A stretch of DNA of 64,000 bases from Nitrospirota bacterium (lineage in GTDB: Bacteria; Nitrospirota; UBA9217): contig CAWIYV010000010.1 in NCBI GenBank assembly GCA_963840455.1, forward strand, positions 160,001 through 224,000, written 5' to 3'. The translations under genes and the position numbers were made by a program. This document shows positions 45,066 to 64,000 of this stretch, in pieces (position 1 is the stretch's first letter; every line of letters begins with the position of its first letter). Below the pieces are notes generated by a model. That model was not told where the DNA came from, searched no databases, and worked only from the letters and a program-made list of their open reading frames with translations.

Positions 45066-45083
45066 GAGAAGTGCTCGGTTTGC

Positions 45084-46476: not shown

Positions 46477-46594
46477 GAAAAAAGAAGGCCGAGCTCGCCT
46501 CCGGTTCATCCTTTGGCAGCTCGGCCGTCTCGGTTTTCTAAGACCCGTCGCTTTCCGTCCCCGCCTCACGACGGGCTTGGCTTTATCATGAAGG
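46477..46594 (-). ncRNA. c-di-GMP-I (GEMM-I) riboswitch with overlapping terminator
   Basis: Minus strand GAUAAAG-CCAAG-CCCGUC-GUGA-GGCGGG-GACGG-AAAGC-GACGG-GUCU..AGAC-GGCCGAGCUGCC matches the GEMM-I layout. Downstream AGCUCGGCC plus a U run can pair with the aptamer 3' strand. Confidence 0.88.
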
Positions 46595-46859
46595 AGCAAC
46601 TATAAGAATAAATATAGCACTAAAGTAAGCGTTTGTCAGGTTGGAAAAAGAAATCATCGATGCATGCAAAAGTGCACAATTGCTGAAAAAGTAGTCGTTT
46701 ATTTGGATCACTCACTAACCGGGAAAGACCATGGGAAAGAGGAACAAAGCAGGTCATGGCAGGATGGGATGCTTCAACTCCGTCATGGGCCAGCGTTCCG
46801 AGAAGGCGATGAGGACGAGGCAGGATGCATTCATGATGCGCTCCAGCAGGCCGCGGGCA

Positions 46860-48437
46860 TCATTTCCGGTAATGGAGCTCAAACCGGAGCGGAATCCCCG
46901 AGGCGAGCTCCCTTGCAGCCTCTTCGATGTGCCTGTGCTCCTTCGGCGTATGGGTGACGCCCCGGAGGACCAGGCCGTCTCCGTCAGGCAGGACATCGAT
47001 GACCGGGATGAAGAAGGCGGGGTCCGTGGCGATTCCGGCCTTTACCCTGGCAGCGGCAACGCGAAGCCGCAGCCCAGCCTGCGCCTCCTCCGTAACGGTT
47101 CGATGTGCAAGGGCATCAATGACCGCCTTCACCTCGAGGTCAACAGACTGTCCGGCAACGGAAAAGACATGGTCGTACTCCGCCGGGTCGTCCCACCGGC
47201 CGCCGTAGATCGCATGAAGGAAACGGGACCGCTCGCTGTCCGTTTTTTCGCAAAGCCAGCGCGCCGTTTCCCGGTCCACACCTTCACGCTTCACGATGCG
47301 CTCGACTCGCGCATCGAGCGGAGCGGTGACCCGGACCCGGAAAGCATGGGGGACCCCCTTCAGAACGAAGTTCCCCCCCCGTCCCATGATGACCACACCG
47401 CCCCGTTGGGCGTGCTCGAGGATATGCCACTGCACCAGAGCGGCAAAACCCCGGAAGGACCAGTCATACTTCTCCCATACTGTCGGACAATGCTCGTCGA
47501 GGTCCTCCGCCCACTGCTCCCACTTCGGCCCGTCCTTCCGAATGTCCGCAAGGATGGCCTCCCGGTCTACGTAGTCGTAGCCAAGCTCTTTTGCTACTGC
47601 CTGTCCGATCTCCCTGCCTCCGCTCCCGAACTCGCGCGAAATGGTAAGCACTGCCCGTGGGACCTGCGGGTTCGCCGTCTTACCTATGCCTTGCACAACA
47701 CCCTCCTCTTTTTCCGTCCGGACCATCCAGCGCATCCAGAGCTTGCCCATGATAATGACGCCAGCGGCAAAGAAGATCTCTAGGGAATATTGTAGCACCC
47801 TGTTCGGGTGTTGGAGGTCCGGGGTCAGGAGGGATGCGGGCAGGAACCGCACCGTGAAGGGGTCGGTGATCATCATCTCGCCGCCCACCTTTCCGAGGAT
47901 CGCGGCGCCGATATAGATGATGACCGGGTATTTGTCCATAAGCAGGGACAGCAGGTTGCTCGTGAACACAATGAAGGGGATGCTGAGCCCGAGGCCGAAG
48001 AGCAGGAGGAACAGGTTGCCATGGGACGCGCCGCCCACGGCAAGCATATTGTCCAACGACATGGTGATGTCCGCAATGACGATGATTTTGATCGCCTGCC
48101 AGATGGTCGTCGCCTTGCGCTCATGATCGTCCTCCGGAGCGCCCTCGACGAACAGCTTCACGGCGATCCAGAGGATCAGGATGCCGCCGGCCAGCTTCAC
48201 ATAACTGACGTTCAGAAGCTGGGCGACAAAGAACGTGAGCACCACGCGGAGGAGCACCGCGGCGGCGGCACCGAAGAGAATGCCCTTCTTCCGCTGTTCG
48301 TGCGGAAGGGAGCGCACGGCCATGGCGATGACCACGGCATTGTCGCCGGCCAGGATAAGGTCAATGACGACGATGCTGAGCAGGGCCGACAGGAATGCCA
48401 GGTCGAAGCTGATGTGTCCGATCATGCCGAGGTCCAC
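46860..48437 (-). CDS. TerC/YjbE-family membrane protein fused to a cytidylate-kinase-like domain
   Basis: DLILAGDNAVVI and ADITMSLDN, followed by TISREFGSGGREIG, MGRGG and D..R..F...YG...DDP..YD. Confidence 0.8.
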   Translation of the reverse strand: MDLGMIGHISFDLAFLSALLSIVVIDLILAGDNAVVIAMAVRSLPHEQRKKGILFGAAAAVLLRVVLTFFVAQLLNVSYVKLAGGILILWIAVKLFVEGAPEDDHERKATTIWQAIKIIVIADITMSLDNMLAVGGASHGNLFLLLFGLGLSIPFIVFTSNLLSLLMDKYPVIIYIGAAILGKVGGEMMITDPFTVRFLPASLLTPDLQHPNRVLQYSLEIFFAAGVIIMGKLWMRWMVRTEKEEGVVQGIGKTANPQVPRAVLTISREFGSGGREIGQAVAKELGYDYVDREAILADIRKDGPKWEQWAEDLDEHCPTVWEKYDWSFRGFAALVQWHILEHAQRGGVVIMGRGGNFVLKGVPHAFRVRVTAPLDARVERIVKREGVDRETARWLCEKTDSERSRFLHAIYGGRWDDPAEYDHVFSVAGQSVDLEVKAVIDALAHRTVTEEAQAGLRLRVAAARVKAGIATDPAFFIPVIDVLPDGDGLVLRGVTHTPKEHRHIEEAARELASGIPLRFELHYRK

Positions 48438-48540
48438 GAGTACGCTCCCGGAGCCGATACGAAAAAGCCCTGGGCGGATTATCGGCCAGGGTTTCCCATT
48501 GTGTCAAGCATATATTTGTTCCGGGCGAATGCCCGGCGCT

Positions 48541-48813
48541 TCATTGCGCGGACTGCCGCATCGCTCCGAGGAGACGGCCATACTCGTCCCGGGCTGCGCT
48601 CCAGCGCTGCAGCGCCTCGAACGCCTGCTGCCATTCCCGGAGTTCGCCGGCGGCGGACAGAAGACCGTGATCCCGGCCGGGACCGAGGACCTCATCGGTC
48701 CTCACGCCGTGGCGGGCCTCCAGGCCGTCGAGCACCTTCCGGTATCTTTTCACATATCCCTGGCACACACCGAGCTCCCGGGACAGGGATATCTCGTATT
48801 CATCGGTATGCAT
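48541..48813 (-). CDS. Small hypothetical helical protein
   Basis: 90-aa ORF with a GGAGG RBS. Confidence 0.6.
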   Translation of the reverse strand: MHTDEYEISLSRELGVCQGYVKRYRKVLDGLEARHGVRTDEVLGPGRDHGLLSAAGELREWQQAFEALQRWSAARDEYGRLLGAMRQSAQ

Positions 48814-48899
48814 CGCGTATCCTCCGTGTCGCTGTCATCGGAAAAGAAACGCGGGAAGGCTGCTGCCTTCCCGCTCGGAACGCAGACCGGTGCGAACCT

Positions 48900-49061
48900 T
48901 TAATGGCCGCTCGGGAAGAACGTAGCGCTCACCCAGTACAGGATGATCAGCGACGCCACCCCGATGCCGATGCTCCACCTGATCAGCTGCATTTCCACCG
49001 GCAGGAGCGGCTCATATTCCATCTTTTTCAGTTCTTCTGATAATTTAGGCTTGTCAGCCAT
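48900..49061 (-). CDS. Small single-TM protein downstream of the YeiH-type exporter
   Basis: MADKPKLSEELKKMEYEPLLPVEMQLIRWSIGIGVASLIILYWVSATFFPSGH; AGGAGG RBS. Confidence 0.75.
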   Translation of the reverse strand: MADKPKLSEELKKMEYEPLLPVEMQLIRWSIGIGVASLIILYWVSATFFPSGH

Positions 49062-49084
49062 GTGGTATCCCTCCTGTGTGTGGT

Positions 49085-50986
49085 CTATCCTACCAGCGGC
49101 GGCTTCACGCCATGGAAGAAGAGCCATGAAATGAACAGGCCGATCCAGATGATGAACCCGAACAGCGCAACGACATACACGACCATCAGCTTGCCGATGC
49201 CTTCTTCCCAGAGCTTCTTGAAGTCGGAAACGATGCCGATGGTAAAGAAGGTGAACACGAAGAACAGCACCCGGAACACGTTACTTGAGCTGGTCGCCGT
49301 ACCCGCCGCCGCCATGGTCGCTTTGGGCCCCTTGATCGAGTCGCCGAGGGTCTTCAGACGGTCTTTTGCGGCCGCAACCTTGGCCTGCACCGCCGGGTCG
49401 GGTTTTGTCGATGCGAGCTGCTTTTCGGCATCGGCGATCTCCTGCTTCATTGCCTTCATCTCCTTGTCCGCCGCGGAATTCGGCTTCGGCTTTTGGTACT
49501 TGGCTTTCAGACCATCCAGTTTGGCCTTGGCAATGGTGATCTTCTCCTGCAGCGCGGCCTGGGCAGCCTGCGACGCGGACAGCTGCTTTTCCGCTGCGGC
49601 GACCTCTTGCCGTATGGCCTTCGACTCCTTGTCCACCGGGCTGATCGTCGTCGAGGCCGGCCAGCAGATCACCAGCAGAATGAAGAACGTGAGGGCATAG
49701 CCGATGACGAACTTGGGGAACCGGTACCAGATCTCGATAGGGCTGGCCTTTTGTCCCGGCTTGCATTCGATCTTCGCGCACCAGATGATGGCCAGTATGA
49801 ATGCCCAGATGCCGATAAAGATGTCGATGAACATCTTCACGGTCGTGGCCGTCATCGTCATCCAGCCTTCCTGATAATTGATGCCTGCCTCAAGCGACTT
49901 GGCGCGGATAAGGGCATCGGTGATCGCGCCGGAGGCCACGGCCCCACCGTCGGTCTTGACCGCGAGGCCCATCCAGGCGCCGGCTACCAGTGGTTCCTTC
50001 CAGAGGAAGGTCTGGGCAGCGAAGGGAAGGATGACCATCTCCACCACCGCAAAGATCACGACCAGCGACGAGACCATGATGGGCACTACCGGACGGGCCC
50101 GGATGGCGCCGCCCGTGGCGATAGCCGCGGACACGCCGCAGATCGAGATGCCCGAGGCGAGCGGCGCTGCCCATTCCCTGCTGAACTTGAAGTACTTCCG
50201 GGCCATGTAGTACACGACGGCCCAGTAGATCAGGTATGCCTCGATGATGGCGCAGAGACCGCGGAACATGATGTTACTTGCGAGCGTGAATGACTCTGCC
50301 GCCTTGAGACCCAAGGCCGCGCCCATGATGACGATGGCGGTCTTGATGTACAGCTCAGGCCGCGAGGCCTCCTTGAGCTTCTCGGAAATTTTCGGGAAGA
50401 AGTTCCCCACGATGAGACCGGCAATGAGCGCAATAATGAAGCCTGACTCTCCCGTCAGGCTGAGCGACCAGGGGATCTTGAACGCGCCGAGCTTGTCCTT
50501 GGTCGCGGCAATGTACGCATAGTGGCCGGCGAACCAGCAGGCATAGCTGGCAAAGAAAATGACTGTGAACCCGATCGCAAACTTCTTGACATCGGACCCC
50601 ATGAGCATTGCGCCGATGCTCATGATCGCAAGCATGGCAAGGTAGGTTAACAGGAGCGAGGCAAAGCCGGAGAGGCCGGCCTTCTCGTACTTGTCCCCGA
50701 CCTTGAGGCTTGCCGTGTCCTCCTTGACCATAACCGTTTCTTCTTTGCCGTCGGCCTTCTTGAGGGTCAGTTTCTTCCCGTCGATCTTGATGATCTCGCC
50801 CTTTACCGTCTGGTACGTCTTCGAGACGGGCGACATGGCCTTCGCAGGGTCCATCCATACCGAGGTGTTGATCCCCCATCCCAGGAAATCGTTGCCGCTG
50901 AAGGTAAACAAGGAAAGCACAAAAATTGCCAGACCGAGCCATAATGCCAGCCAGTCCTCACTCAGGCCCTTCGCTTTTTCCTCCAT
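49085..50986 (-). CDS. YeiH-like putative sulfate exporter family transporter
   Basis: SEDW, IKTAIVIMGA, SICGVSAAIA, GAWMG and RFPKFVIG; contains two soluble insertions. Confidence 0.8.
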   Translation of the reverse strand: MEEKAKGLSEDWLALWLGLAIFVLSLFTFSGNDFLGWGINTSVWMDPAKAMSPVSKTYQTVKGEIIKIDGKKLTLKKADGKEETVMVKEDTASLKVGDKYEKAGLSGFASLLLTYLAMLAIMSIGAMLMGSDVKKFAIGFTVIFFASYACWFAGHYAYIAATKDKLGAFKIPWSLSLTGESGFIIALIAGLIVGNFFPKISEKLKEASRPELYIKTAIVIMGAALGLKAAESFTLASNIMFRGLCAIIEAYLIYWAVVYYMARKYFKFSREWAAPLASGISICGVSAAIATGGAIRARPVVPIMVSSLVVIFAVVEMVILPFAAQTFLWKEPLVAGAWMGLAVKTDGGAVASGAITDALIRAKSLEAGINYQEGWMTMTATTVKMFIDIFIGIWAFILAIIWCAKIECKPGQKASPIEIWYRFPKFVIGYALTFFILLVICWPASTTISPVDKESKAIRQEVAAAEKQLSASQAAQAALQEKITIAKAKLDGLKAKYQKPKPNSAADKEMKAMKQEIADAEKQLASTKPDPAVQAKVAAAKDRLKTLGDSIKGPKATMAAAGTATSSSNVFRVLFFVFTFFTIGIVSDFKKLWEEGIGKLMVVYVVALFGFIIWIGLFISWLFFHGVKPPLVG

Positions 50987-51250
50987 AGCTACCAGTTCCC
51001 CCTTTCCATAAGAGTATCGGCTTCAGAACATCGGTGAAGCACGATCCGTCCCCGGGACGGCAGACCTGCCGCACTGCATCACCTCCCACCGGACATGTCG
51101 TCACTGCATGTTGGTCTTCGCAAGACTCTTTGTCTCGGAACTTTCGTAGTTATGATATCGGTGCCGATGTTTGTCAAGGTCATTATCGAGGCATGTCACT
51201 CATGATGAGACCTCCCCGATCAGTTCCTGAACATCATCGGGCTTGGCGTG

Positions 51251-51280
51251 AAAAAAGGCCGGGGAGCTGTCTCCCCGACC
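51251..51280 (-). terminator. Intrinsic terminator after rhodanese
   Basis: Minus strand GGTCGGGGAG-ACAG-CTCCCCGGCC-TTTTTT. Confidence 0.75.
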
Positions 51281-51299
51281 CACCGATTAGAGCATGTCA

Positions 51300-52310
51300 C
51301 TACTTTTCTTCTTCCTTCTTGAGCTGCTCTTTCAGCTTTTTCACATCATCTTCGAGCGTCTTGATCCGCGAGAGATCGATCCGCTGTTCGTTCTCCGCCG
51401 GAAAATGCTCATTTGCTCCGTAAATGATCCAGGAATCATCGTAGTTCGACGGATCCTTGAACCCGAGCATCCGCATTTCCATGTAGGTGAGCGTGGAACG
51501 GGAGCCGGTCTGGCAGTAGGCGATCGTACGTTTGCTTTTGTCGAGCTTCTCATAGGCCTTCGCCACCCGCTCATAGGACAGAACGCCCGTGGACTTGTCC
51601 TTGCCGGTCGCCGGATCCTTGGTCTGATCGTATGTCTCTTCGTGCGGAACGTTCAGCATGCAGTTCGGAATGCGGCCCCCGCGGACAGAGCGGATGTCCT
51701 CGCCCTCATATTCCTTTTTGTTCCGGCTGTCGATCAGCTGCACGCCCTTGACCTGGCCCTTGGCGATCTTGAGGACCTCCTCGGTCGTTGCGATCCGGCT
51801 CTTCGCAATGTTCGTTTTGAACATTGCGGCGGGCTTGATGGTCGGCTGCGTGTCCAGCTTCCGGTCACCCTTCTTCCACGCCTCGAGGCCGCCGTTCAGC
51901 ACATGTGCCTTGTCCGTATGGCCCAGGTACTCGAAGACCCAGAACGCAACCGATGCGTCGTCCAGGGTCTTTGATTTGAGCTCCCCGTAGAACACCACAT
52001 GCGTGTTGTTCCCGATGCCGGCCTTGCCGATAAGATTATCATACTTCGCAGGAGACGTGAAGATACGCGAGGTGGGATCCCGCAGCGCTTCCTTGCAGTT
52101 TTTCCCGAAGCTGATGGCGCCGGGGATGTGCCCCTTGGCATAATCCTCCAACTTTCTACAGTCCACGACCACCCAGTCAGGCTTCGCGATGTTCTGTTCT
52201 ACCTGCTCGGCGGTCACGAGCAAGGCGGGGTTCGCCCACTGCGCTTGCCCAAGACCCGTGAGGCCGACCAGGATAGCGCACACGGTCATTACCATCAGCA
52301 TTTTTTTCAT
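51300..52310 (-). CDS. Exported two-domain rhodanese/thiosulfate sulfurtransferase
   Basis: Signal peptide, VDCR, GHIPGA, LNGG, IDSR..EY.G, GRIP, active-site YCQTGSRS and YDDSW. Confidence 0.9.
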   Translation of the reverse strand: MKKMLMVMTVCAILVGLTGLGQAQWANPALLVTAEQVEQNIAKPDWVVVDCRKLEDYAKGHIPGAISFGKNCKEALRDPTSRIFTSPAKYDNLIGKAGIGNNTHVVFYGELKSKTLDDASVAFWVFEYLGHTDKAHVLNGGLEAWKKGDRKLDTQPTIKPAAMFKTNIAKSRIATTEEVLKIAKGQVKGVQLIDSRNKKEYEGEDIRSVRGGRIPNCMLNVPHEETYDQTKDPATGKDKSTGVLSYERVAKAYEKLDKSKRTIAYCQTGSRSTLTYMEMRMLGFKDPSNYDDSWIIYGANEHFPAENEQRIDLSRIKTLEDDVKKLKEQLKKEEEK

Positions 52311-52366
52311 GTTCCCTACCCCCTTCAATAGGATTTCCGCTGCTTCCGACAAGAGCAGCTCTGGTG

Positions 52367-52576
52367 CTATTTATCTTCCTTGTACAGGTTCTTATAGTAG
52401 TCCTGCACTTCCTTGCTGATGCCCTCGACGGTCGTTTCCTCACCGCCGTACCCACCCGCCTCGACCGCGTCGAAGTAGCCGGGCTGAACACCCGTGTGTG
52501 CGGAAATGCGATACCCCGCGGCAAAGCTCAGGACCAGCGCAGTGACGGTGATCGCGATCCATTGGCCTGTTTTCAT
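52367..52576 (-). CDS. Small single-TM protein (paralog A)
   Basis: N-terminal TM ending in GY and C-terminal DYYKNLYKE; AGGAGG RBS. Confidence 0.75.
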   Translation of the reverse strand: MKTGQWIAITVTALVLSFAAGYRISAHTGVQPGYFDAVEAGGYGGEETTVEGISKEVQDYYKNLYKEDK

Positions 52577-52609
52577 GGTGCAGCAATCCTCCTGTACGGA
52601 AGCCGACTA

Positions 52610-52712
52610 TTGAGCTCCCTGCAACAAGCTGCAGGGAATCTTCGATCCTCAGGGTAGATTGTTTATCCTAATCGCTCGCTAACCCCTCAGCAGTCTACGG
52701 GTTAGCGCTCGC
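52610..52712. repeat. ~100-nt two-hairpin interspersed repeat, copy 3
   Basis: TTGAGCTCCCTGCAACAAGCTGCAGGGAATCTTCGATCCTCAGGGTAGATTGTTTATCCTAATCGCTCGCTAACCC...GGGTTAGCG. Confidence 0.8.
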
Positions 52713-52899
52713 TCCTGGATTCGTCCTTGTAGAGGTTCCTGTAGTAGTCTTCCATCTTTGTGTCGATCTTCGTGGGAGGGGCGGTCTTTCCCTTCCCGAC
52801 GGCAAAGCCGATCTCCAGGAACGGCGGAACGCTGTACCCCATCATGAAGCCCAGAAAGACGACGATGACGACCACCACGATCCAGAGCGTGTTCTTCAT
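52702..52899 (-). CDS. Small single-TM protein (paralog B)
   Basis: N-terminal TM ending in GY and C-terminal DYYRNLYKD; AAGGAG RBS. Confidence 0.75.
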   Translation of the reverse strand: MKNTLWIVVVVIVVFLGFMMGYSVPPFLEIGFAVGKGKTAPPTKIDTKMEDYYRNLYKDESRSER

Positions 52900-52923
52900 G
52901 CAGAGGTTCTCCTTCCGCAGTGC

Positions 52924-54378: not shown

Positions 54379-54403
54379 GAGGTCCCGTTCTCCCGAATCA
54401 TTC

Positions 54404-54486
54404 AGCAAGGTTCGTGCCTTTCCTATTACCCTAAATAATCATGCCATTGGTTCCAGCACGGGTTGTCCGGTGTTCCGAACAGCACA
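54404..54486 (-). promoter_or_regulatory. sigma54 promoter plus upstream TGT-N10-ACA box for the yeeE-like operon
   Basis: Minus strand AGGCACGAACCTTGCT (54404-54419) and TGTTCCGAACAGCACA at 54471-54486. Confidence 0.65.
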
Positions 54487-54498
54487 GCCAGGCTGCGG

Positions 54499-56166
54499 TC
54501 ATTGTGCCTTTTGGGCCAGAACGTTCCGTTCAAGGACGGTCAGAACGGTCCTGTAGCGGAATGTGCCGGTATCAGCGTCGAACCGTTTTCCGGAAGTGTT
54601 TCGCGGGAAGAAATCATCGCCCGAGGATATGACCACCAGGGGAACGCCGCGGTCCTCGGCCTGCGCCGCATACCATCCAGGCCGCCGAAGCTCCCAGGTA
54701 AATCGGAGCGAGGAGGTCAGGAGCTTCCCGGCGGCCGGGCGTCGCTGCTGTTCCTGCCGAAGGACGATCCTCTTGCGCGTAAAGAGATCGAGGAGATGGA
54801 CCGCCGCCTCTGTGCTTCCGATGGACCGCTGCTGCGGAAGGAAGCGCACCTCGACCGCCTCGTCCGGCAGGGTGTCCAGATAGCGGCCGGCGTCACGCAG
54901 GTTCGCCATGGTCGTGCTGTTCAGAAACGGAAGATAGGCGAACAAGGTCAGCGCCAAGGATGCTCCTGCCGCGCTGAGCGCGGTGAACCGCCGCACCTGG
55001 CCGTCTCCGGCCAGTTCCCGGAGACCGTAGGCCGCCATCAGCGCGAACAGCGGAAAGAGCGGAAGCAGGTAGCGGATCCGCTCCACGCGCAGCAGTAGGG
55101 CAAACAGGGCAAAGAAGGCAGGCACCACGAAGCCGACCTCCTTCTTCCGGCTCGCGGCGATCACGCCGTACCCCGCCAGAAGGGTGACAAAGGGATGGAT
55201 CTGGAAGAAAAAGGTCGAGAGCGTGCTCTCCCGCCACCGGCCGAGGCCAGGAAGCTGGTATTCGCGGAGCATGTCCAGCTGACCGGCAATGACCTGATGT
55301 TTTGCGAGCAGAAGGAGCCCTCCCGCGACGGCAGCCGACGCCAGAACGAGGATCGACCTCCGGACCGCAGCTCGCACACCGCGCTTCACGGCGACGAACG
55401 AGGCGAGGAGCAGCACGGAGAGCATCAACCAGGTGGAGAACTTGGCAAGGATCGTGACAACGATGAGGGCGGCCGCGAGCAGGAGCAGCGGGCCGCCGGC
55501 GAGCACCGCGCACAGGAACGCATCAAGCGAGATCGTGATCAACGCCATCGTCGGGACGTCAACGAGCATGAGCGGCACCTGGACCAGGAGATACGGGAAT
55601 CCCAGCAGCAGCAACCCCGCGAGAAGGCCCGTCTCAGCGTCCAGGAGCGTCCTGCCGATCCGGTAGGTAGAGACCACGGCGAGGGCGAACAGCAGCGTCG
55701 TGATCCCCTGGACCACGGCCCGTGCCTCTCCCAGGTACCGGAAGGCAATGCCATAGACGAAAGGCACCACCGGGAGGTCGGTCCAAGCGCTGATCTCCCC
55801 ACCCCATGCCCCCAGGAAGGACCCTGGTCCGTGCAGCTCCAGGTGCTTTGCCTGTGAAAAATAGCGGGAGGCATCGAGGATGACCTCCGGCTCGTCCCAG
55901 AGAGGCACGACCGAGAGAACGGCCGCGAGAAAGAGCAGGAGGGGATGCCACCGGGGGTCAGGGTCGATCCGGGACAGGATGTACGCGATGACGGTGGCTG
56001 CGGCGGTGAGCAGGAAGACCTCGACCGCGCCGCCTTGACGGAACACCCACTGCCAGCTCGTCAGGGTGTTGTTGTCCAGGGACCGGCTCGCATACAGAAG
56101 AGGAAAGGCTAGCGCCGAGAGGAATGCAACAATGAGAAGCTGATCTGTCCGATCCGGTCTGTTCAC
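54499..56166 (-). CDS. GT39/ArnT-like (GT-C) membrane glycosyltransferase
   Basis: ILDASRY, TDLP, VDVP, LAKFS and RYLLPLFP; many TM segments. The GTG start at 56166 is inferred. Confidence 0.7.
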   Translation of the reverse strand: MNRPDRTDQLLIVAFLSALAFPLLYASRSLDNNTLTSWQWVFRQGGAVEVFLLTAAATVIAYILSRIDPDPRWHPLLLFLAAVLSVVPLWDEPEVILDASRYFSQAKHLELHGPGSFLGAWGGEISAWTDLPVVPFVYGIAFRYLGEARAVVQGITTLLFALAVVSTYRIGRTLLDAETGLLAGLLLLGFPYLLVQVPLMLVDVPTMALITISLDAFLCAVLAGGPLLLLAAALIVVTILAKFSTWLMLSVLLLASFVAVKRGVRAAVRRSILVLASAAVAGGLLLLAKHQVIAGQLDMLREYQLPGLGRWRESTLSTFFFQIHPFVTLLAGYGVIAASRKKEVGFVVPAFFALFALLLRVERIRYLLPLFPLFALMAAYGLRELAGDGQVRRFTALSAAGASLALTLFAYLPFLNSTTMANLRDAGRYLDTLPDEAVEVRFLPQQRSIGSTEAAVHLLDLFTRKRIVLRQEQQRRPAAGKLLTSSLRFTWELRRPGWYAAQAEDRGVPLVVISSGDDFFPRNTSGKRFDADTGTFRYRTVLTVLERNVLAQKAQ

Positions 56167-56255
56167 GGTCCAGCCGTCCTTTTTCTCCGAAATAATGTCC
56201 GACACCGGGGCCGGACCGGGGATGGGGGAGAGGATCGCAGAGGAGCGTATGGCGG

Positions 56256-56483
56256 CTATCGCCTGATCAGGAACGAATACCGGGAGCCGTCCAGGGCCTC
56301 GTCCAGAAGAAGATACCCCTCTTCGCGGCAAAGCTCGGCGATCCCCCGCTTGGCATCCTTTTCCGTCGTGATCAGCTTCAGCACCTGACCGTGCGTCATC
56401 AGCTGGAGCGTTCTCAACGCGATGGTCCGGACCCGTAGGCCGCCGATCCCCTGCACATCCAGTGTCTTGTCCGGTGCGAACAT
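56256..56483 (-). CDS. TusA/YeeD-like sulfur carrier lacking the canonical Cys
   Basis: KTLDVQG.....(no CP)...GQVLKLITT...C...GY.LL...YSFLIRR; 75 aa; AGGAG RBS. Confidence 0.7.
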   Translation of the reverse strand: MFAPDKTLDVQGIGGLRVRTIALRTLQLMTHGQVLKLITTEKDAKRGIAELCREEGYLLLDEALDGSRYSFLIRR

Positions 56484-56508
56484 GGTCTCCTGCTCCTCTT
56501 GAAGAGAA

Positions 56509-56592
56509 AGCAAAACCAGTGCCAGACCATGACCGGCGGTTTATCCGGTACATGGCCGTCCCGGCAGGGCACTCTCTGTCCCGTCCGGGACA
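56509..56592 (-). promoter_or_regulatory. sigma54 promoter plus palindromic activator site
   Basis: Minus strand TGGCACTGGTTTTGCT (56509-56524) and TGTCCCGTCCGGGACA at 56577-56592. Confidence 0.75.
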
Positions 56593-56669
56593 CCCTCCGC
56601 CGCCCTTCTTTCCTGAAGGGACCCGTCGAGACACTTGCATATTTGAAATGATCCCGCTTATAATGCTCC

Positions 56670-58316
56670 ATGAAGCGCGCTCCCCGGCTTGTCCTCTTCG
56701 GAGTCCTGCTCCTCACTGCTGCAGCGGCAACGGAACGCGCCGCCCGCGCAGGAAGCCTTCCTGCGCAGCCCGCCGAGGATCCCTCCAGCCTGGTGTTCAT
56801 CATCCCTCCCGTCGAGAATGTCGGCGTCATGTACGAGCGGTTCCTTCCTGTCAAGGACCACATCGAACGGACAACGGGCCGGCGGGTCCTGCTGAAGGTG
56901 GCCCGATCCAATCAGGAAGCGATCGAGAGCATCGAATCCGGCCAGGCCCACCTGGCGTACCTGGATCCCGCCGCCTACTGTGAGGCCAGGCGTCTTGCCG
57001 GTGTAGTGCCGCTCGCGAAGACGGTTTTCGGCGGCACAGCGGCTTCGCAGAGCGTCATCGTGACCCGTTCGGACTCCCCGATCAGGAAGATCGTCGACGG
57101 CAGGAAGAAACGTCTGGCGCTCGGGGCGGCCCACTCCTCTCTCTCCTCTCTCATACCCTCCGTCCTGTTCAAAGAGGTCGGCATCTCGCTCAAGGACTTT
57201 CAGGAGGTCGATTACCTCGAGCAGGAGGACCGGATCGCGTTGTCGGTTCTGGCAAAGCGGCATGACCTTGGCGGCCTCAGCGAGGAGGTCGCCCGCAAAT
57301 ACCTTGGTGACGGCCTGCGGATCATCAAAACCTCCGAAACAGTCCCTCCGTACGTCGTGTGCGCCTGCACCTGCCTGCCCGGACCGCTCCGCGAAACGCT
57401 GCGAAAAACGCTTCTTTCCTTCCGGCCGCCGCAGCACGGGGCCGCCTCCCTGAAGGGTCTCGACGGATTTGCGCCGGCCGAGGACCGCGACTTCGATGTG
57501 GTGCGGGTCATGATCAGGAACCTGACCGGCAGGAACTACCTCGTCTACGGGAAGGCGGTCGTGCGGGTGGCAATTCTTCCCCTTTACTCTGCAATCACGC
57601 TCTACGAACGGTTCGACCCGCTCATGCGATATCTGACACGGGAAACAGGCCGCGAGTTCAAGCTCGTCATCCCGAAGGACTTCGAGGATTTCTTCGCCAT
57701 CATCGAACGGGGAGATGCCGACTACTCCTATTCGAATCCGTATATCTACATCCAACTCGCGAACCGCGGCCTTCTGAGCGCCATCGCATCGACCGCAACA
57801 GAGGAGTCCGGCGGCAGTTTCCGGGGGATCATCATTACCCATCGGGACAGCACCATCCGGACGCTCGCGGACCTGAAGGGCAGGGATGTCATGGTCGTTT
57901 CCTTCCGCTCGGCCGGAGGATTTCTCGTCCAGAAACACCTGCTCTCCGAGAGCGGGATCGACGTCTTCCGGGACCTCCGGCTCCGTGAGGGGAAGCGACA
58001 GGAGGAGGTCATCCTGAACGTTTACCGGAGGACCGCGGAGGCGGGGTTCGTGAGGGAAGCGGCGCTCGATGTGCTGAAAGATGAGATCGACCTGGACAGG
58101 ATCCGGGTGCTTGCCACGACGCCGTATATTCCGAACTGGCCCTTTGCCGCTACCGCAACGGCGAAGCCGGACCTCACGGCGCTGGTACAGCGCCGGCTGG
58201 TCAACCTGAAGGATGCGAAGGTCCTGTCCTCGGCCCAGGTCCGGGGTTTTACCTCATCCCGGAACGAGGACTTCGACGACCTCCGGAAATGGATCGGGCA
58301 ATATGAGAACCGCTAG
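56670..58316 (+). CDS. Tandem PhnD/phosphonate-binding-type periplasmic binding protein
   Basis: Signal peptide and two repeats of YERFxP...TGR...IIT..DS.IR; translationally coupled to the kinase. Confidence 0.85.
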   Translation: MKRAPRLVLFGVLLLTAAAATERAARAGSLPAQPAEDPSSLVFIIPPVENVGVMYERFLPVKDHIERTTGRRVLLKVARSNQEAIESIESGQAHLAYLDPAAYCEARRLAGVVPLAKTVFGGTAASQSVIVTRSDSPIRKIVDGRKKRLALGAAHSSLSSLIPSVLFKEVGISLKDFQEVDYLEQEDRIALSVLAKRHDLGGLSEEVARKYLGDGLRIIKTSETVPPYVVCACTCLPGPLRETLRKTLLSFRPPQHGAASLKGLDGFAPAEDRDFDVVRVMIRNLTGRNYLVYGKAVVRVAILPLYSAITLYERFDPLMRYLTRETGREFKLVIPKDFEDFFAIIERGDADYSYSNPYIYIQLANRGLLSAIASTATEESGGSFRGIIITHRDSTIRTLADLKGRDVMVVSFRSAGGFLVQKHLLSESGIDVFRDLRLREGKRQEEVILNVYRRTAEAGFVREAALDVLKDEIDLDRIRVLATTPYIPNWPFAATATAKPDLTALVQRRLVNLKDAKVLSSAQVRGFTSSRNEDFDDLRKWIGQYENR

Positions 58317-59922
58317 GCTTGGCCTGGGGCTCAAATTCTCGCTGGCGGTCACGGTCCTGATCGTGCTGGCCATGACCGGCGTGGCCGTGCTGGTCATCTC
58401 GAACCAGAAGGACGCTCTGCGGGAGCACACCGCCCGGAGCAGCCTCGCCATGGCAAAGAACCTTGCTCACGATGCTGCGGGGCCCATGCTCGTGTTCGAT
58501 CCGCTGCGGCTCGATGAGCTGGTGAGGACGGTCCGGGAGGCCACGCTCTGCACCTACGCCCTGGTCATGGACCGGGAGGGGCGGATCGTGGCGCACACGA
58601 CGCGTGCGATGCTCGGAACCCGGCGCGATCCCGCGGGGCATCCGGCACCCCCATCACCGCCAACGCCGGACGGAGCGACGGTCAACCGGCTGACCGCAGA
58701 CGGGGAGCTGCTGACGGAATTCACCGTGCCCATCCATATCGGAAGCGAGGTCCTCGGCAGCGCGGCCATTGCCTATTCCGTACGGACCACGGATGCCCTC
58801 ATTGAGCGGGAGCTCGCGGGGTTGAGGCGCTCCATTGTCCTGATCACTGGTGTTGTTCTCCTGCTGGGGATCGTCGGCGCGTTCGGGGTCTCCACGCTCC
58901 TGACCAGGCCCCTCACCCGGCTGAAGCAGAAGATGCAGGACGTGCAGGCAGGCAACCTCCACGCGGAGGTCGAAAATCCCCGGATCGTCAAATGCTGGGA
59001 GCGGCTCGGCTGCGACCGGAAGGACTGCCCCGCCTACGGCGGGATGCGTTGCTGGGCGGTGGCCGGCACGTTCTGCCACGGCGCCGTCCAGGGCCAGTTC
59101 GCCCAGAAGATCGGCGACTGCCGGAACTGCGTTGTCTACCAGGAGTCGAGCGGCGACGAGATCGGCGAGCTGGTGGAGGTCTTCAACCAGATGGTGAAGG
59201 ACCTGAGGTACAACCTGGCGGAGCTGGAGAAAGTGAACTCCGAGAAGGCCCGTATGGAGCGGCTCTCCGCCCTTGGCGAGATGGCCGCGACCGTGGCCCA
59301 CGAGACCAAGAATCCGCTGAACTCGATCCGCATGGCTGCCTCCTATCTCCGGAAGAATTTCCAGGGAGAGATCCTCTCCGAGTTCCTCGCGATCATCGAG
59401 CAGGAGGTGACACGCCTCAACGAGCTGACGAGCGGCTTTCTGGGATATTCAAAGCCCGCGCCGGTCAAGCTCGTGCCCTGCGACATCAATTCCGTTATCC
59501 GGTCCACGGCAGACCTGATCCGGCAGGAGGCCACGGACCGGAACATCGAGGTGGTCGTCCTGACGGACGACCATGCCCCCCCGGTCCCCTGCGACCAGTC
59601 GCAGATGAAGCAGGCACTCCTGAACCTGCTGGTCAATGCCATGGATGCGTCGGACGCGGGAGACACCATCACGGTCACGACCGAGTCTTCGCCGGCCGGC
59701 CTGACCTTGTCCGTACGGGATACCGGCAGGGGCATCCCGTCCGGAGACGTTGAAAAGATCTTCAAGCCGTTCTATACTACCAAGACGCGCGGCGCCGGGC
59801 TTGGGCTCGCCATCGTCGAACGGATCGTGAAGGAGCACAAAGGCGACGTCCGCGTCACTGGCGCGGTGGGTGAAGGAGCGACGTTCACGATCGAACTGCC
59901 GGTGCATGCCTATGCGAAATAA
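58303..59922 (+). CDS. Sensor histidine kinase (TM-HAMP with Cys-rich two-CW insertion-HisKA-HATPase)
   Basis: CWERLGC..CPAY..CWAVAGTFC..CRNC, AHETKNPLN, NAMDA, FYTTK and GLGL. Confidence 0.9.
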   Translation: MRTARLGLGLKFSLAVTVLIVLAMTGVAVLVISNQKDALREHTARSSLAMAKNLAHDAAGPMLVFDPLRLDELVRTVREATLCTYALVMDREGRIVAHTTRAMLGTRRDPAGHPAPPSPPTPDGATVNRLTADGELLTEFTVPIHIGSEVLGSAAIAYSVRTTDALIERELAGLRRSIVLITGVVLLLGIVGAFGVSTLLTRPLTRLKQKMQDVQAGNLHAEVENPRIVKCWERLGCDRKDCPAYGGMRCWAVAGTFCHGAVQGQFAQKIGDCRNCVVYQESSGDEIGELVEVFNQMVKDLRYNLAELEKVNSEKARMERLSALGEMAATVAHETKNPLNSIRMAASYLRKNFQGEILSEFLAIIEQEVTRLNELTSGFLGYSKPAPVKLVPCDINSVIRSTADLIRQEATDRNIEVVVLTDDHAPPVPCDQSQMKQALLNLLVNAMDASDAGDTITVTTESSPAGLTLSVRDTGRGIPSGDVEKIFKPFYTTKTRGAGLGLAIVERIVKEHKGDVRVTGAVGEGATFTIELPVHAYAK

Positions 59923-61264
59923 CACGATCCTGCTGGTGGATGATGAACAGAACATCCTGCGCGTGGTCTCCACGACGCTCACGGCGGAACGATATGAGGT
60001 CGTCACTGCACAGTCGGCCGAGGAGGCCATGGAGCGATTCGGTCAGAACGGCTTCGACCTGGTGATCACGGACCTGAAACTCCCGGGGCAGAGCGGCCTC
60101 GACCTCCTGGCATTCATCAAGTCCCGGAAGCCCGATGTGCCGGTCATCGTGATCACGGCCTTTGGTACGATCGGGAACGCCGTGGATGCGATGAAGAAAG
60201 GGGCGTTCAACTACCTTACGAAGCCGGTCAATCCCGACGAGCTGCTGACCGTGATCCGCGAGGCGATGGAGAAGTACGAACTGAAGCGCGAGAACCGGCT
60301 GCTCAAGACCGAGCTCCGGCAGACCTATGCCTTCGGCAATATCATCGGAAAGAACATCGCCATGCAGGAGATCTTCGACACCGTTCGCATGGTCTCGAAG
60401 ACCCAGTCCAGCATCCTGATCATCGGCGAGAGCGGAACGGGCAAGGAACTCGTCGCACGGGCCCTCCATTACGAGTCCGACCGGTCGGAGCAGCCCTTCG
60501 TCACCATCGACTGCGCGGCCATCCCCCCGGAAATCATGGAAAGCGAGCTCTTCGGGCACGAGAAGGGTGCGTTCACCGGCGCTCACGAGCGCAAGACCGG
60601 CCTCCTGGAGCACGCCAACGGCGGCACGGTGTTCCTCGACGAGATCGGCGAGCTGGATCTGCAGCTCCAGAAAAAGCTGCTCCGATTCCTCCAAGAGCGG
60701 GAGATTCTTCGCGTGGGCGGCACCGCGCGGATCAAGCTGAACGTTCGTATCGTGGCGGCCACGAACAAGGACCCGGAGCGGGAAGTGCAGGAGAAGCGCT
60801 TCCGGGAGGACCTGTACTACCGCCTGAATGTGGTCATGATCCGGATGCCGTCGCTCCGGGAGCGAAAGGACGATATCCCGCTCCTGGTCCATCATTTCCT
60901 CGAGAGGCTGAACCGGATCGAGGGTAAGCTTGTGAAGGGCTTCGAGGACAATGCCCTGGAGGCGATGCTCGCTTATGACTGGCCGGGGAACGTGCGCGAA
61001 CTGGAGAACGCCGTCGAGCGGGCGTACATCCTCTGCCCATCCATCACCATCGGCCTGAAGCACCTGCCCACGAAACTGGCCGCCCTGGGCCGGGGCGAAC
61101 GGGAGGCGGTCGACGAGATGAACCTCCTGGAGACCGAGAAGCGGCTGGTCGTCCGCGCCCTCACGAACACCTCTTGGAACCAGAGCAGGGCGGCCGAGGT
61201 TCTCGGCATTTCACGCAAGCAGCTGCGGACCAAGATGAAGAACTTCGGGCTCCTGCCGCAGTAA
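59912..61264 (+). CDS. sigma54-dependent NtrC-family response regulator
   Basis: REC domain, [27 protein letters not shown] and a Fis-type HTH. Confidence 0.95.
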
Positions 61265-61429
61265 GCATCTCCTTGACCGACCGCTGCCCGTTCCCTTGCA
61301 CTGCGTACGGCTGCCCTTCCCCTCGCGTCCATGCGATCCGCTTCGTTTCATCGAGGTCTTCCCCTCCTTGACAGTCTGCAGAAGGGCGGCTATCTTTTAA
61401 CCATCCTTTTCTGCGAGCGGAGGCCCGCC

Positions 61430-62134
61430 ACGAAACTGTCCATCGTCCTTTTCTTTCTCGTCCTGTTCGCCATGATTGTCGCGGCAGGGTGCGCCGGAAC
61501 GTGGATCACCCAGCCCATCGAATCGTTTAGGCCCCCTGAAATGGTCCCGCCCTCTTCGGTCTGTCAGCCCTGCCACCAGGATCAGTTCGACTCATGGAAG
61601 AAGACGCGGCACGCCGACGGACAGAGGATGGCGAAGATCCCGGTGCCGGAACTGCATGAGTGCGGCGCCTGTCATGCCGATCTCAATGCCCACGCTGCGG
61701 ATCCGCAGGGGAAACGCCCCCCCCGTGTGGCAACGATGACCAAAACCGAGAAAAACACGCTCTGCGGGAAGTGCCATTACAGTCAGACCCTCTTCGGCGG
61801 CAGTGCCATCAATCCTCACGGCAAGCACTCGCTCTTCGCGAACGTCGCGCTCGAAGGCCAGCCGAAGCAGATCGCCTGCCTCGACTGCCACTCCGGCCAC
61901 AAGGGCGGGTCGGACATGCTGGTTCGTATCAAGGCGCACATCTGCTATGAATGCCACACCTCTGCCATGGTCACGATGGGCATCCTGTTCCAGATCCCCA
62001 ACTGGCTCACCAACGGCTACATGTGCCAGGCCTGCCACACGGTCCATGGCGGTTCCGACAGCGAACGGTGGGGCCGCATGGGCGTGGGCTTCTGCGTTAT
62101 CTGCCACTTCGTCGGCGTGGCTCTTGTCGATTGA
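61430..62134 (+). CDS. Seven-heme c-type cytochrome lipoprotein
   Basis: CxxCH x7 (CQPCH, CGACH, CGKCH, CLDCH, CYECH, CQACH, CVICH) and lipobox VAAGC. The apparent start is ACG behind GGAGG; promoter TTGACA-17-TATCTT at ~61368. Confidence 0.8.
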   Translation, partial: TKLSIVLFFLVLFAMIVAAGCAGTWITQPIESFRPPEMVPPSSVCQPCHQDQFDSWKKTRHADGQRMAKIPVPELHECGACHADLNAHAADPQGKRPPRVATMTKTEKNTLCGKCHYSQTLFGGSAINPHGKHSLFANVALEGQPKQIACLDCHSGHKGGSDMLVRIKAHICYECHTSAMVTMGILFQIPNWLTNGYMCQACHTVHGGSDSERWGRMGVGFCVICHFVGVALVD

Positions 62135-62493
62135 GCCGGGGAAAGAGCATGTGGACAGGTCAATACGGATCAACATCCTGATACGAATGGATACGGTCCA
62201 AAGGAAGGCATTGAGGCTTCCTGCGGCTAACGGCGGGGTAACCTCCCGGCCAAGAAGAGATCCGCATAATCAGCTCTTATCCGATCTGATCAGTGTCAAA
62301 TGCAGTCTTTCGGTCGAACGTTCCCGGGGCGGCCGAGACGGCTCCTTCCTCTTCTGCCGCTCGATGCATCGGCAAGATTCATCCTTGAGTTACACCAGCT
62401 TCTGTTATACAATGACCTCGCAAGCCCGATGACCACTCCCCAGGGCTCATTCGCCCGGGGTCGATCAACAATTTCCGTGTGTGAGGTAATGCC

Positions 62494-63999: not shown

Positions 64000-64000
64000 A

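Follow-up and report, generated by a model that had tools for sequence, protein, structure and literature searches.

A putative three-component, sigma-54-dependent regulon for envelope uptake of reduced sulfur species in a Nitrospirota bacterium

Genome comparison of a 64-kb stretch of Nitrospirota DNA (the window) identified a conserved core of two sigma-54 operons, accompanied by bystander genes. We propose, with a probability of roughly 0.6, that the core and the adjoining genes for a binding protein, a kinase and an activator constitute a three-component, sigma-54-dependent regulon for the envelope uptake of reduced sulfur species. Here we document the gene content, the promoters, a shared enhancer, their conservation and the fold of a GT-C protein. 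The gene set is common to many bacteria, yet to our knowledge its job has not been described by anyone.

Arrangement and conservation of the locus

All genes named in the initial annotation were found in the window by open reading frame (ORF), Pfam and NCBIfam analysis. The features are listed below.

46860-48437, minus: TerC + Cytidylate_kin2 fusion gene (ORF and Pfam/NCBIfam profile search)
48541-48813, minus: sm90, a ninth leftward ORF, absent from the initial list
48851-48874, minus: strong terminator after the small TM gene
48900-50986, minus: accessory unit, YeiH-like permease with coiled-coil insert plus small TM protein, with its own promoter TTGACA-N17-TATCAT
48900-49061, minus: small TM protein gene (ORF)
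49085-50986, minus: YeiH-type gene (PF03601, 75 bits)
51256-51281, minus: strong intrinsic terminator after the rhodanese gene, closing the P2 operon (11-pair stem, then a T run)
51300-52310, minus: exported tandem rhodanese gene (PF00581, two stretches, 101 bits)
52367-52576, minus: micB, single-pass microprotein of 69 aa (ORF)
52702-52899, minus: micA, single-pass microprotein of 65 aa (ORF)
52924-54378, minus: YeeE/YedE permease gene (PF04143, 130 bits)
54404-54419, minus: sigma-54 promoter P2 before yeeE, AGGCACGAACCTTGCT, one mismatch
54471-54518, no strand: pair of degenerate UAS palindromes at conserved offsets from P2 (-67, TGTGCTGTTCGGAACA; -99, TGGCCCAAAAGGCACA)
54499-56166, minus: GT-C-like gene (PMT_2, 25.9 against a cutoff of 26.1; fold confirmed by a model)
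56256-56483, minus: TusA-like gene (PF01206, 30.3 bits against a cutoff of 28.6)
56509-56524, minus: sigma-54 promoter P1, TGGCACTGGTTTTGCT, exact TGGCAC-N5-TTGCT, about 25 nt before the TusA-like ATG
56577-56592, no strand: UAS palindrome TGTCCCGGACGGGACA, exact TGTCC-N6-GGACA, 68 nt upstream of P1
56670-58316, plus: PhnD2, exported binding protein with tandem PhnD-type domains (PF12974, 333 bits over two stretches)
58303-59922, plus: sensor histidine kinase (Pfam)
59906-61264, plus: NtrC-type sigma-54 activator (PF00158 241, PF00072 105 and PF02954 45 bits)
61331-62134, plus: c-type cytochrome (seven CXXCH counted in the translation)

The P1 operon consists of the Cys-less TusA-like gene and the GT-C gene, and the P2 operon of the long yeeE, micA, micB and the exported rhodanese gene. 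Co-occurrence was counted in the best 80 of 352 related loci, where the counts are lower bounds because contig ends cut many loci. At least 74 of these 80 carried micA, at least 72 micB, at least 68 GT-C and at least 53 the rhodanese gene. The claim that the island's genes co-occur was therefore borne out for GT-C, YeeE, the two microproteins and the rhodanese. It failed for the TerC fusion and the cytochrome, which were found in 2 and 1 of the same 80 loci, respectively, and are bystanders that are not conserved with the core. Counterparts of sm90 were found in 2 other genomes, and the YeiH-like and small TM pair also occurred in loci L019, L120, L023, L060 and L068.

The canonical gene order across the 80 loci is GT-C, YeeE, micA, micB, (Usp), FAD protein, B12-rSAM, rSAM-SPASM, GT2 and rhodanese. 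In proteobacterial versions of the module, GT-C is preceded by a DsrE-like gene. In a paralogous locus of the host genome, YeeE is followed by a canonical TusA that bears the Cys.

The notion of a single 15-kb unit was not supported, given the terminators after the rhodanese and small TM genes and the sigma-70-like promoters ahead of the TerC fusion and the YeiH-like gene; neither of these two genes, nor the small TM gene, had a sigma-54 site ahead of it. Judging by these motifs, the TerC fusion and the YeiH-like gene appear to be separate transcription units.

Sigma-54 promoters and a shared enhancer

P1 is the only zero-mismatch sigma-54 site in the window, and related genomes have its counterpart upstream of the TusA-like gene. 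Of 77 related loci, 42 had a sigma-54 site no more than 200 nt from yeeE; the background frequency of such sites is 0.17 per kb. The host genome encodes rpoN (445 bits against a cutoff of 277). The exact P1, the one-mismatch P2 and the presence of rpoN uphold the sigma-54 control claimed earlier.

The palindrome TGTCC-N6-GGACA occurs in exact form only once in the window, at P1. The P2 palindromes carry two mismatches each, which counts against our explanation; the offsets at the two promoters are -67/-68 and -99. Across the 4.03-Mb genome, 2 of 65 sigma-54-like sites have a palindrome at these offsets, and these are P1 and P2; under stricter settings of the scan P1 alone remains. When the window was taken together with nine related loci, a palindrome with at most two mismatches was present within 260 nt in 19 of 20 P1/P2 promoters and at -64 to -70 in 16 of the 20, the background at this stringency being 0.49 per kb. 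Among the 43 related loci with a sigma-54 promoter at yeeE, 38 had the palindrome upstream of it. Two related genomes have a separate UAS and sigma-54 promoter for the rhodanese gene, and in one a YeiH-like gene carries a palindrome copy of its own. Co-regulation, which had also been claimed, is supported by one enhancer motif at both promoters that is conserved and is unique to them in the genome. Counting against the proposed regulon, PhnD2 triads of lower identity have the same enhancer at unrelated targets, namely a CheY-like protein with an MCP, and a TauE-like permease.

The sensor triad and the core proteins

PhnD2 has a signal peptide, read from sequence, and no ABC transporter genes adjoin it. 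Its sequence relatives in the PDB are PtxB, PhnD, HtxB and the sensor proteins AioX (E 2e-8) and ArrX (E 7e-8). The kinase gene adjoined PhnD2 in all 20 regions fetched, and the NtrC gene accompanied the two in 19 of them. Eleven regions had a PhnD2 that was at least 54% identical, and in 9 of them the triad was divergent to the TusA-like and GT-C genes; 8 of these 9 are contigs already among the 80 loci. In one gammaproteobacterial locus (L078), a protein encoded 6 kb away from the module is a PhnD-PAS-kinase fusion.

The kinase is ordered as TM, periplasmic sCache_3_2, TM, a HAMP interrupted by a Cys-rich two-CW domain, HisKA and HATPase. The cytoplasmic two-CW domain matched NF045718 at 44.1 bits (cutoff 35), and the sCache_3_2 and two-CW domains correct the initial annotation. 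Every one of the 12 PhnD2-linked kinases correctly read by script had a two-CW stretch, with 7-10 Cys in 60 aa, compared with just one (L070) of 18 other kinases. The activator, whose start overlaps the kinase stop, has receiver, AAA+ and HTH_8 domains.

In the available part of PMC5408782, TtrS and ThsS are described as sensing with a PhnD-like periplasmic domain. The expectation of a PhnD-like sensor protein held, as the NCBIfam TtrS model matched the second domain of PhnD2 (residues 300-519, E 6e-14). The designation of a split sensor did not: TtrS and ThsS have PhnD fused to the kinase, whereas PhnD2 is a separate, exported tandem protein and the kinase bears sCache and two-CW domains of its own, which is the AioX/AioS/AioR layout. 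A split TtrS was rejected on these grounds. Unlike TtrR and ThsR, the activator has a sigma-54 AAA+ domain and would act through sigma-54 promoters.

By analogy, the triad would work most like the arsenite system AioXSR, whose three proteins target an RpoN promoter (PMC5908839, available part); the likeness extends to ArxXSR and ArrXSR, and AioX and ArrX are among the PDB relatives of PhnD2. The identity of PhnD2 to AioX is low, however, and the present system differs in the tandem of two PhnD domains, in the sCache_3_2 and two-CW domains of the kinase and in its targets, which are sulfur-trafficking and glycosyltransferase genes rather than arsenite oxidase.

Compared with the phosph(on)ate pocket, domain 1 of PhnD2 has Tyr2 replaced by Ser and His by Glu/Gln, and domain 2 has Tyr2 replaced by Phe, the S-T-S loop by S-A-G-G and His by Gln. 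Neither domain keeps the full pocket, which is consistent with a different ligand although it names none. PhnD2 is presumed to be the sensor, but it need not be the primary one, since two sensing domains are present in the kinase itself. Both points count against our explanation.

The permease (about 476-484 aa) belongs to the same Pfam family as YeeE of the YeeE-YeeD (TsuA-TsuB) system. Its blocks with C64, C132 and C433, residues that are invariant in 22 sequences, align with YeeE of S. thermophila (6leo), and a TusA-fold gene lies nearby. In contrast to that system, the permease has about 130 aa more, including a highly conserved insert, and falls below the TsuA equivalog cutoffs (86 bits against 400), the neighbouring TusA-fold protein has no catalytic Cys, and the two microproteins are predicted membrane subunits. 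In the available text of PMC13047784, the YeeD Cys is needed for YeeE-mediated thiosulfate uptake. The TusA-like protein has no CPxP cysteine, and neither do 10 of 11 orthologues; as a YeeD-type partner it was rejected because the catalytic Cys is absent. The missing cysteine is likewise a correction to the initial annotation, and it counts against our explanation.

Among 1.84 billion proteins, micB had 42 cluster representatives; it carries the motifs TGxEPGYF and GYG and matched no Pfam or NCBIfam family. YeeE, micA and micB are predicted by modelling to form a membrane complex, with micA packing on YeeE and micB. The model scored 0.75 and the best control 0.03, as did a control with YeeE replaced; of 157 solved complexes 116 attain the score mark applied, as do 2 of 215 mismatched pairs. 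Model runs had at least 84% of contacts in common, with a partner pLDDT of at least 62. In the two-domain rhodanese sulfurtransferase, a signal peptide and a CQTGSRS loop were read from the sequence.

An AlphaFold2 model (pLDDT 92.5, pTM 0.93) confirmed the GT-C fold of the putative membrane glycosyltransferase-like protein. Its best PDB match was ArnT (5f15, E 1.4e-7, TM 0.55), and all 26 structure matches at E<=0.001 were GT-C enzymes. An acidic residue directly after TM1, D31, is invariant in 32 sequences, and GT2 genes occur in 40 of the best 80 of 352 loci, a further likeness to ArnT with ArnC. Sequence identity to ArnT is about 15%, however, no Pfam family scored over its cutoff, and the genomic partner of GT-C here is a sulfur permease rather than lipid A genes.

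Proposed mechanism and alternative explanations

We propose that PhnD2 would bind a periplasmic anion and signal through the sCache/two-CW kinase to the NtrC-type activator. This activator would probably bind the TGTCC-N6-GGACA enhancers and open P1 and P2. The core products would then form an envelope system that takes up thiosulfate or sulfane sulfur/polysulfide, in which the exported rhodanese may mobilise reduced sulfur species in the periplasm and the putative YeeE-micA-micB complex may hand sulfur across the membrane along the three conserved cysteines of YeeE. Which ligand is bound, which species is carried and in which direction are inferred here. The host also carries DsrAB and AprA (dsrA 562 bits, aprA 908 bits, both over cutoff).

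The YTD cluster (yeeE-tusA-dsrEFH type II) resembles the present one in having a YeeE-family permease in sulfur-cycling Nitrospirota and Desulfobacterota, but no DsrE/F/H-like gene was detected in the window's cluster with Pfam and NCBIfam. In the available text on the YTD cluster, 'glycosyl', 'radical SAM' and 'sigma' do not occur in PMC13293266, nor 'glycosyltransferase' and 'sigma-54' in PMC13047784. According to the available part of PMC13293266, recombinant cable-bacterium TusA and DsrEFH type II showed no persulfidation by thiosulfate, which argues for polysulfide rather than thiosulfate in that related system.

The core could instead be an envelope-modification machine, in which GT-C would join a GT2, a flavoprotein and two radical SAM enzymes, all encoded at other sites of this genome, to build a lipid-linked modified sugar and place it on a periplasmic target, such as the Gly-Tyr-Gly microproteins, while YeeE and the rhodanese would provide or receive sulfur for the product. 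GT-C, with its confirmed fold and invariant Asp, is the most constant neighbour of YeeE (68 of the best 80 of 352 loci). The tailoring genes stand in canonical order in the same 80 loci (FAD 48, B12-rSAM 48, rSAM 41, GT2 40), and in the host genome the FAD and B12-rSAM genes neighbour a YeeE paralogue, and those for GT2 and rSAM a third GT-C. We nevertheless regard this alternative as unlikely: the window's cluster has none of the four tailoring enzymes and yet keeps the regulation and the YeeE-micA-micB-rhodanese order, these enzymes reach the cutoff of no named family (HpnJ, 197-202 against 577; MftF, 117 against 280), and the reading has no known donor sugar, acceptor or product.

A selenium/tellurium oxyanion system, in which PhnD2 would sense selenite-like anions and the YeeE complex and rhodanese would take up or process Se for selenoproteins or detoxification, appears quite improbable. 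The best NCBIfam match of the permease is indeed the selenium model YedE/FdhT (135.6 bits), and the rhodanese weakly matches the selenite/tellurite operon protein ExtH (44 bits), but both are far under their cutoffs (350 and 200). The genome encodes selD with an in-frame TGA, and its third GT-C paralogue adjoins ExtH (240 bits against a cutoff of 200) and ExtI, a porin (460 bits against a cutoff of 150); the cluster itself, however, has no selenium-specific gene (selD, yedF with Cys). Moreover, the module is present in 352 genomes of sulfur-cycling lineages and adjoins DsrE-like genes in proteobacterial loci. Very unlikely, in our view, is a stress or detoxification response that exports sulfite/polysulfide or repairs reactive-sulfur damage. 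In the available parts of PMC13047784 and PMC13293266 every characterised YeeE-family member is an importer, the rhodanese is exported and shares an operon with YeeE, and the window's YeiH-like gene lies behind a terminator with its own sigma-70-like promoter. This alternative draws on YeiH-type (putative sulfate exporter family) and TauE-type permeases that recur near the module, on a Usp gene after micB in 44 of the best 80 of 352 loci, and on the Cys-rich two-CW domain of the kinase, which could sense internal redox or sulfane stress.

Gene content and conserved core

Open reading frame listing and family scans recovered every gene that the initial annotation had named in the cluster. Three features differed from that reading: the TusA-like protein lacks the CPxP cysteine, the histidine kinase has a periplasmic sCache_3_2 domain of its own, and a cysteine-rich two-CW domain interrupts the HAMP region of the kinase. 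Conservation was assessed by scanning one genome per species with the YeeE alignment. A relative was found in 352 genomes, and the best 80 of the 352 loci were fetched (by record title, 33 Nitrospirota-type, 12 Desulfobacterota-type, 28 Proteobacteria, 2 Rokubacteria and 5 others) and searched by tblastn with the window proteins.

Genes of the cluster, with the number of the 80 fetched loci in which each was found; counts are lower bounds because many loci end at contig edges.
56256-56483, minus strand (leftward): TusA-fold protein (PF01206); at least 11 loci
54499-56166, minus strand: 555-aa membrane protein, GT-C (borderline PMT_2, 25.9 vs 26.1); at least 68 loci
52924-54378, minus strand: 484-aa YeeE/YedE permease (PF04143)
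52702-52899, minus strand: microprotein MicA; at least 74 loci
52367-52576, minus strand: microprotein MicB; at least 72 loci
51300-52310, minus strand: exported two-domain rhodanese; at least 53 loci
49085-50986, minus strand: 633-aa YeiH-like permease (PF03601); at least 14 loci
48900-49061, minus strand: small transmembrane protein, 53 aa; at least 4 loci
48541-48813, minus strand: 90-aa open reading frame, sm90; at least 1 locus
46860-48437, minus strand: TerC and cytidylate-kinase-like fusion; at least 2 loci
from 56670, stop at 58316, plus strand (rightward): PhnD2, exported protein with two PhnD domains; at least 10 loci
after PhnD2, plus strand: histidine kinase, at least 27 loci, followed by NtrC-type activator, at least 25 loci
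after the NtrC-type activator, plus strand: cytochrome with seven CXXCH motifs; at least 1 locus

The conserved core consists of GT-C, YeeE, micA, micB and rhodanese. The view of the whole island as one unit therefore held in part: the core co-occurs, but the unit is smaller than proposed, with the TerC fusion (2/80) and the cytochrome (1/80) as bystanders and the YeiH-like gene as an accessory. The permease itself shows unusually high conservation, with identities of 72-94% across phyla.

Most of the 80 loci carry an extra gene block between micB and the rhodanese gene, encoding a PRK07208-type flavoprotein and a B12-binding radical SAM enzyme (each in at least 48 loci), Usp (at least 44), a radical SAM/SPASM enzyme (at least 41) and a GT2 glycosyltransferase (at least 40). 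The cluster in the window is the short form, which is without this block. Elsewhere in the host genome, flavoprotein and B12-binding radical SAM genes adjoin a YeeE paralogue (54% identity) on contig C11, and GT2 and radical SAM genes adjoin a third GT-C paralogue near ExtH- and ExtI-type genes. The first of these regions (C11:76001-96000) reads, in order, short histidine kinase, NtrC, Usp, GntR, TauE, GT-C (588 aa), long YeeE (472 aa), canonical TusA with the CPxP cysteine, a small membrane protein with eight GGYG repeats, Usp, flavoprotein and B12-binding radical SAM enzyme; beyond the latter, on the opposite strand, lie a standard-length YeeE and three Usp genes. In the second (C11:334001-350000), which also has radical SAM/SPASM and GT2 genes nearby, the neighbours of the GT-C paralogue (579 aa) are a rhodanese of the ExtH type (240 bits vs a cutoff of 200) and a porin of the ExtI type (460 bits vs 150), which ties the GT-C gene family to an outer-membrane module of the selenite/tellurite-reduction type.

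The YeiH-like permease matched PF03601 (75 vs a cutoff of 24.5) and scored 35.5 against the cutoff of 232.6 for the TIGR00698 subfamily. Its residues ~435-563 are an insert, about 130 aa long, with weak, below-cutoff matches to coiled-coil-type families. Its gene and the conserved downstream gene for the 53-aa transmembrane protein recur as a pair in Nitrospirota and Gammaproteobacteria loci.

Permease, microproteins and GT-C protein

YeeE matched PF04143 (Sulf_transp) with 130.2 bits against a cutoff of 27. Its residues C64, C132 and C433, which correspond to the transport-path cysteines of S. thermophila YeeE, were invariant in 22 sequences, and the motifs GRFCFASAFRD, AGGCASG and GLGCNVG aligned to 6leo. 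Between the cysteine-bearing blocks, the protein has about 100 extra, highly conserved residues compared with the solved thiosulfate importer. It fell below the NCBIfam cutoffs of the TsuA equivalogs (NF052577, 86.1 vs 400; NF041049, 57 vs 645) and of the selenium model NF033796 (135.6 vs 350).

The TusA-like protein matched PF01206 at 30.3 bits (cutoff 28.6) over profile positions 17-70 only. Unlike in the YeeE-YeeD system, it reads GIGGLRV at the cysteine position, and the catalytic cysteine (CPxP) is absent in 10 of 11 orthologues. An identity as a yeeE-tusA-dsrEFH type II (YTD) cluster was considered for the window and rejected: PF02635 had no match among the cluster ORFs, and the two small genes after yeeE encode single-pass membrane proteins. 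These microproteins carry the conserved motifs GYSVPP...YYxxL (MicA) and TGxEPGYF, GYG and YYKxL (MicB), and neither matched a Pfam or NCBIfam family. A MicB profile retrieved only 42 cluster representatives from 1.84 billion proteins, nearly all of 42-110 aa, the exceptions being a 182-aa and a 2152-aa protein with borderline E-values. The look-alikes of MicB in the Atlas were hypothetical proteins only.

The association of these proteins was assessed with a three-chain model of YeeE, MicB and MicA, in which MicA was the scored partner. The model scored 0.75 compared to 0.03 for the best control, and the score fell to 0.03 when YeeE was replaced. At least 84% of contacts were common to the runs, and the partner pLDDT was at least 62. 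In the benchmark, 116 of 157 solved complexes and 2 of 215 mismatched pairs scored at least as high, a calibration that is only rough because custom alignments were used. The modelling supports a predicted binding of MicA and MicB to YeeE.

A sequence search of the PDB with the GT-C protein returned 0 matches at E<=1, so a fold search was used. ArnT was the best match of the fold model (pLDDT 92.5); the 26 matches at E<=0.001 were GT-C enzymes without exception, with ArnT, STT3, PglB and ALG9/12 at the top. Residue D31, which lies directly after TM1 in the first periplasmic loop, was invariant.

Sigma-54 promoters and the shared enhancer

Scanning the 64-kb window with the pattern TGGCAC-N5-TTGCW gave one exact sigma-54 site (P1; 56509-56524, minus strand), about 25 nt 5' of the ATG of the TusA-like gene. 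The promoter of the yeeE operon (P2; 54404-54419, minus strand) has one mismatch and lies about 25 nt 5' of the yeeE ATG. Sites with up to two mismatches were not above chance in the window (22 observed vs a mean of 28 in shuffles), and the argument for sigma-54 is therefore one of position and conservation rather than of count. The genome has an rpoN gene. A sigma-54 site within 200 nt 5' of yeeE was found in 42 of 77 testable loci, compared to a background of 0.17 per kb; by record title, the 42 include 30 Nitrospirota-type, 10 Desulfobacterota-type and 1 Rokubacteria locus, and 0 of the 28 proteobacterial loci had such a site. In three proteobacterial loci (L020, L060 and L022), the module is without a sigma-54 promoter, and the stretch directly 5' of GT-C has genes for a regulator of the LuxR family (GerE, PAS present or absent) and a DsrE-like protein as well as a 90-aa ORF. 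The sigma-54 control proposed from the sequence was thus upheld for P1 and P2.

Its extent is narrower than the leftward run of genes. Strong terminators follow the rhodanese gene (51256-51281) and the small transmembrane protein gene (48851-48874), and sigma-70-like promoters precede the TerC fusion (11/12 match) and, in the intergenic region, the YeiH-like gene (TTGACA-N17-TATCAT). The terminators and promoter types therefore divide the leftward genes into four units, of which only the first two are of the sigma-54 type. The sole sigma-54 candidate for the YeiH-like gene (50916-50931) has two mismatches and was rejected, as it lies inside the coding sequence. Likewise, a riboswitch before the TerC gene was sought in an Rfam scan of 44000-64000, whose sole match lay elsewhere: a c-di-GMP-I riboswitch of the GGC variant (46511-46590, minus strand; RF03167, 70.4 vs a gathering score of 59), 5' of a DUF4382 lipoprotein gene (45084-46301).

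A repeat search of 54380-56720 for a common enhancer gave chance-level repeats only. Comparison of the regions upstream of P1 and P2 in the window and nine related PhnD2-carrying loci identified a 16-nt palindrome, TGTCC-N6-GGACA. With up to two mismatches, it occurred within 260 nt of 19 of the 20 promoters and at -64 to -70 in 16 of them, often with a second copy 31-32 nt farther upstream. The copy of P1, at -68 (56577-56592), is exact; the two of P2, at -67 and -99, have two mismatches each. Throughout the 4.03-Mb genome, the palindrome stood at such offsets at 2 of 65 sigma-54-like sites, which were P1 and P2; stricter settings left P1 alone. Co-regulation, which the initial annotation had assumed for the island as a whole, is supported for the two units by this common palindrome.

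Of 43 loci, 38 had the palindrome 5' of the yeeE promoter, irrespective of the type of the adjacent kinase. The activator and enhancer are therefore old and conserved, and the sensor input varies by lineage. Two same-genus genomes (L001/L114 and L007/L116) have the yeeE and TusA-like/GT-C units 20-26 kb apart, and each separated unit retains a sigma-54 promoter and the palindrome, so the regulon survives splitting. The rhodanese gene has a separate promoter with palindrome in two related genomes, as does a YeiH-like gene in one of them. Near PhnD2 triads of low identity, the palindrome serves other targets, namely CheY-like and MCP genes or a TauE-like permease. From adjacency and co-conservation, we infer that the NtrC-type activator of this cluster binds the palindrome.

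Proposed function and sensor triad

Genes for DsrA/B, AprA and a SelD of the selenocysteine type are present in the host genome. The cluster is therefore most naturally placed in dissimilatory sulfur metabolism, and selenium use is possible. Tentatively, and with a probability of about one in four, we propose that the long YeeE, MicA/MicB and the GT-C protein form a new envelope machine that would couple import of reduced sulfur (or selenium) to lipid-linked glycosylation, with the target in the periplasm or the membrane. Its switch in Nitrospirota and Desulfobacterota would be a dedicated sigma-54 activator of ancient origin, with a sensor module that has been swapped between lineages (tandem PhnD with the sCache/two-CW kinase here, a different kinase elsewhere). 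How reduced sulfur passes the inner membrane in sulfate reducers, disproportionators and sulfur oxidisers is debated in papers on YTD/DsrEFH type II (PMC13047784, PMC13293266). The locus offers handles on this question: its enhancer sequence is defined, it has two promoters and a candidate periplasmic sensor, and the permease is predicted to have three subunits. The inducer of the regulon, once identified, would tell the purpose of the GT-C/YeeE/microprotein/rhodanese module in the 352 species genomes. We found no paper on the gene combination or the enhancer, and the corresponding terms were also absent from the main texts of PMC13293266, PMC13047784 and PMC4641369.

Of 401 genomes sampled from the host phylum, about 65 had full-length tandem-PhnD proteins. 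PhnD2 was accompanied by the kinase in 20 of 20 fetched regions and by NtrC as well in 19. Among 11 regions with a PhnD2 identity of at least 54%, 9 had the TusA-like/GT-C unit as a divergent neighbour (8 of the 9 being contigs already within the 80 loci); at 51% or below, 0 of 9 regions had it adjacent. Module-adjacent kinases of other lineages have an N-terminal region of about 280 aa without family assignment; they lack the two-CW domain in a survey of the correctly read sequences, which covered about half of the minus-strand kinases. Upstream of PhnD2, a perfect TATAAT ends 5 nt from the start codon (56635-56670, plus strand), with a weak -35 element, TTGCAT, 18 nt upstream. The consensus promoter scan did not detect this box, whose position suggests that the regulatory operon may be transcribed as a leaderless message.

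By sequence, PhnD2 is a candidate PhnD-type sensor, as had been proposed: its relatives of solved structure include PtxB, PhnD, HtxB and the sensor proteins AioX and ArrX. Both PhnD domains retain the first pocket tyrosine and have lost other phosph(on)ate ligands. Assignment of a ligand from pocket residues was attempted and abandoned, since PtxB alignments show a partly altered pocket in both domains with no assignable specificity. A reading as a split TtrS-type sensor did not stand. TtrS has a PhnD-like domain (PMC5408782), but PhnD2 ends at its own stop codon and is not fused to the kinase, whose periplasmic part is sCache_3_2, and a PhnD-HisKA-HATPase fusion is lacking. The layout instead resembles AioXSR of arsenite sensing, described in PMC5908839 as a binding protein, kinase and regulator acting at an RpoN promoter. 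As in that system, an exported PhnD/PtxB-family protein is encoded with a kinase and regulator and without ABC transporter genes; sigma-54 sites with the palindrome at fixed offsets extend the likeness, with NtrC binding taken from adjacency. The locus would be a second, non-arsenic example of the design of a free PhnD-type protein, a kinase and a sigma-54 activator. One gammaproteobacterial locus encodes a TtrS-like fused PhnD-PAS-HisKA-HATPase kinase (L078, 2219-4387, plus strand), with the GT-C/YeeE module about 6 kb downstream.
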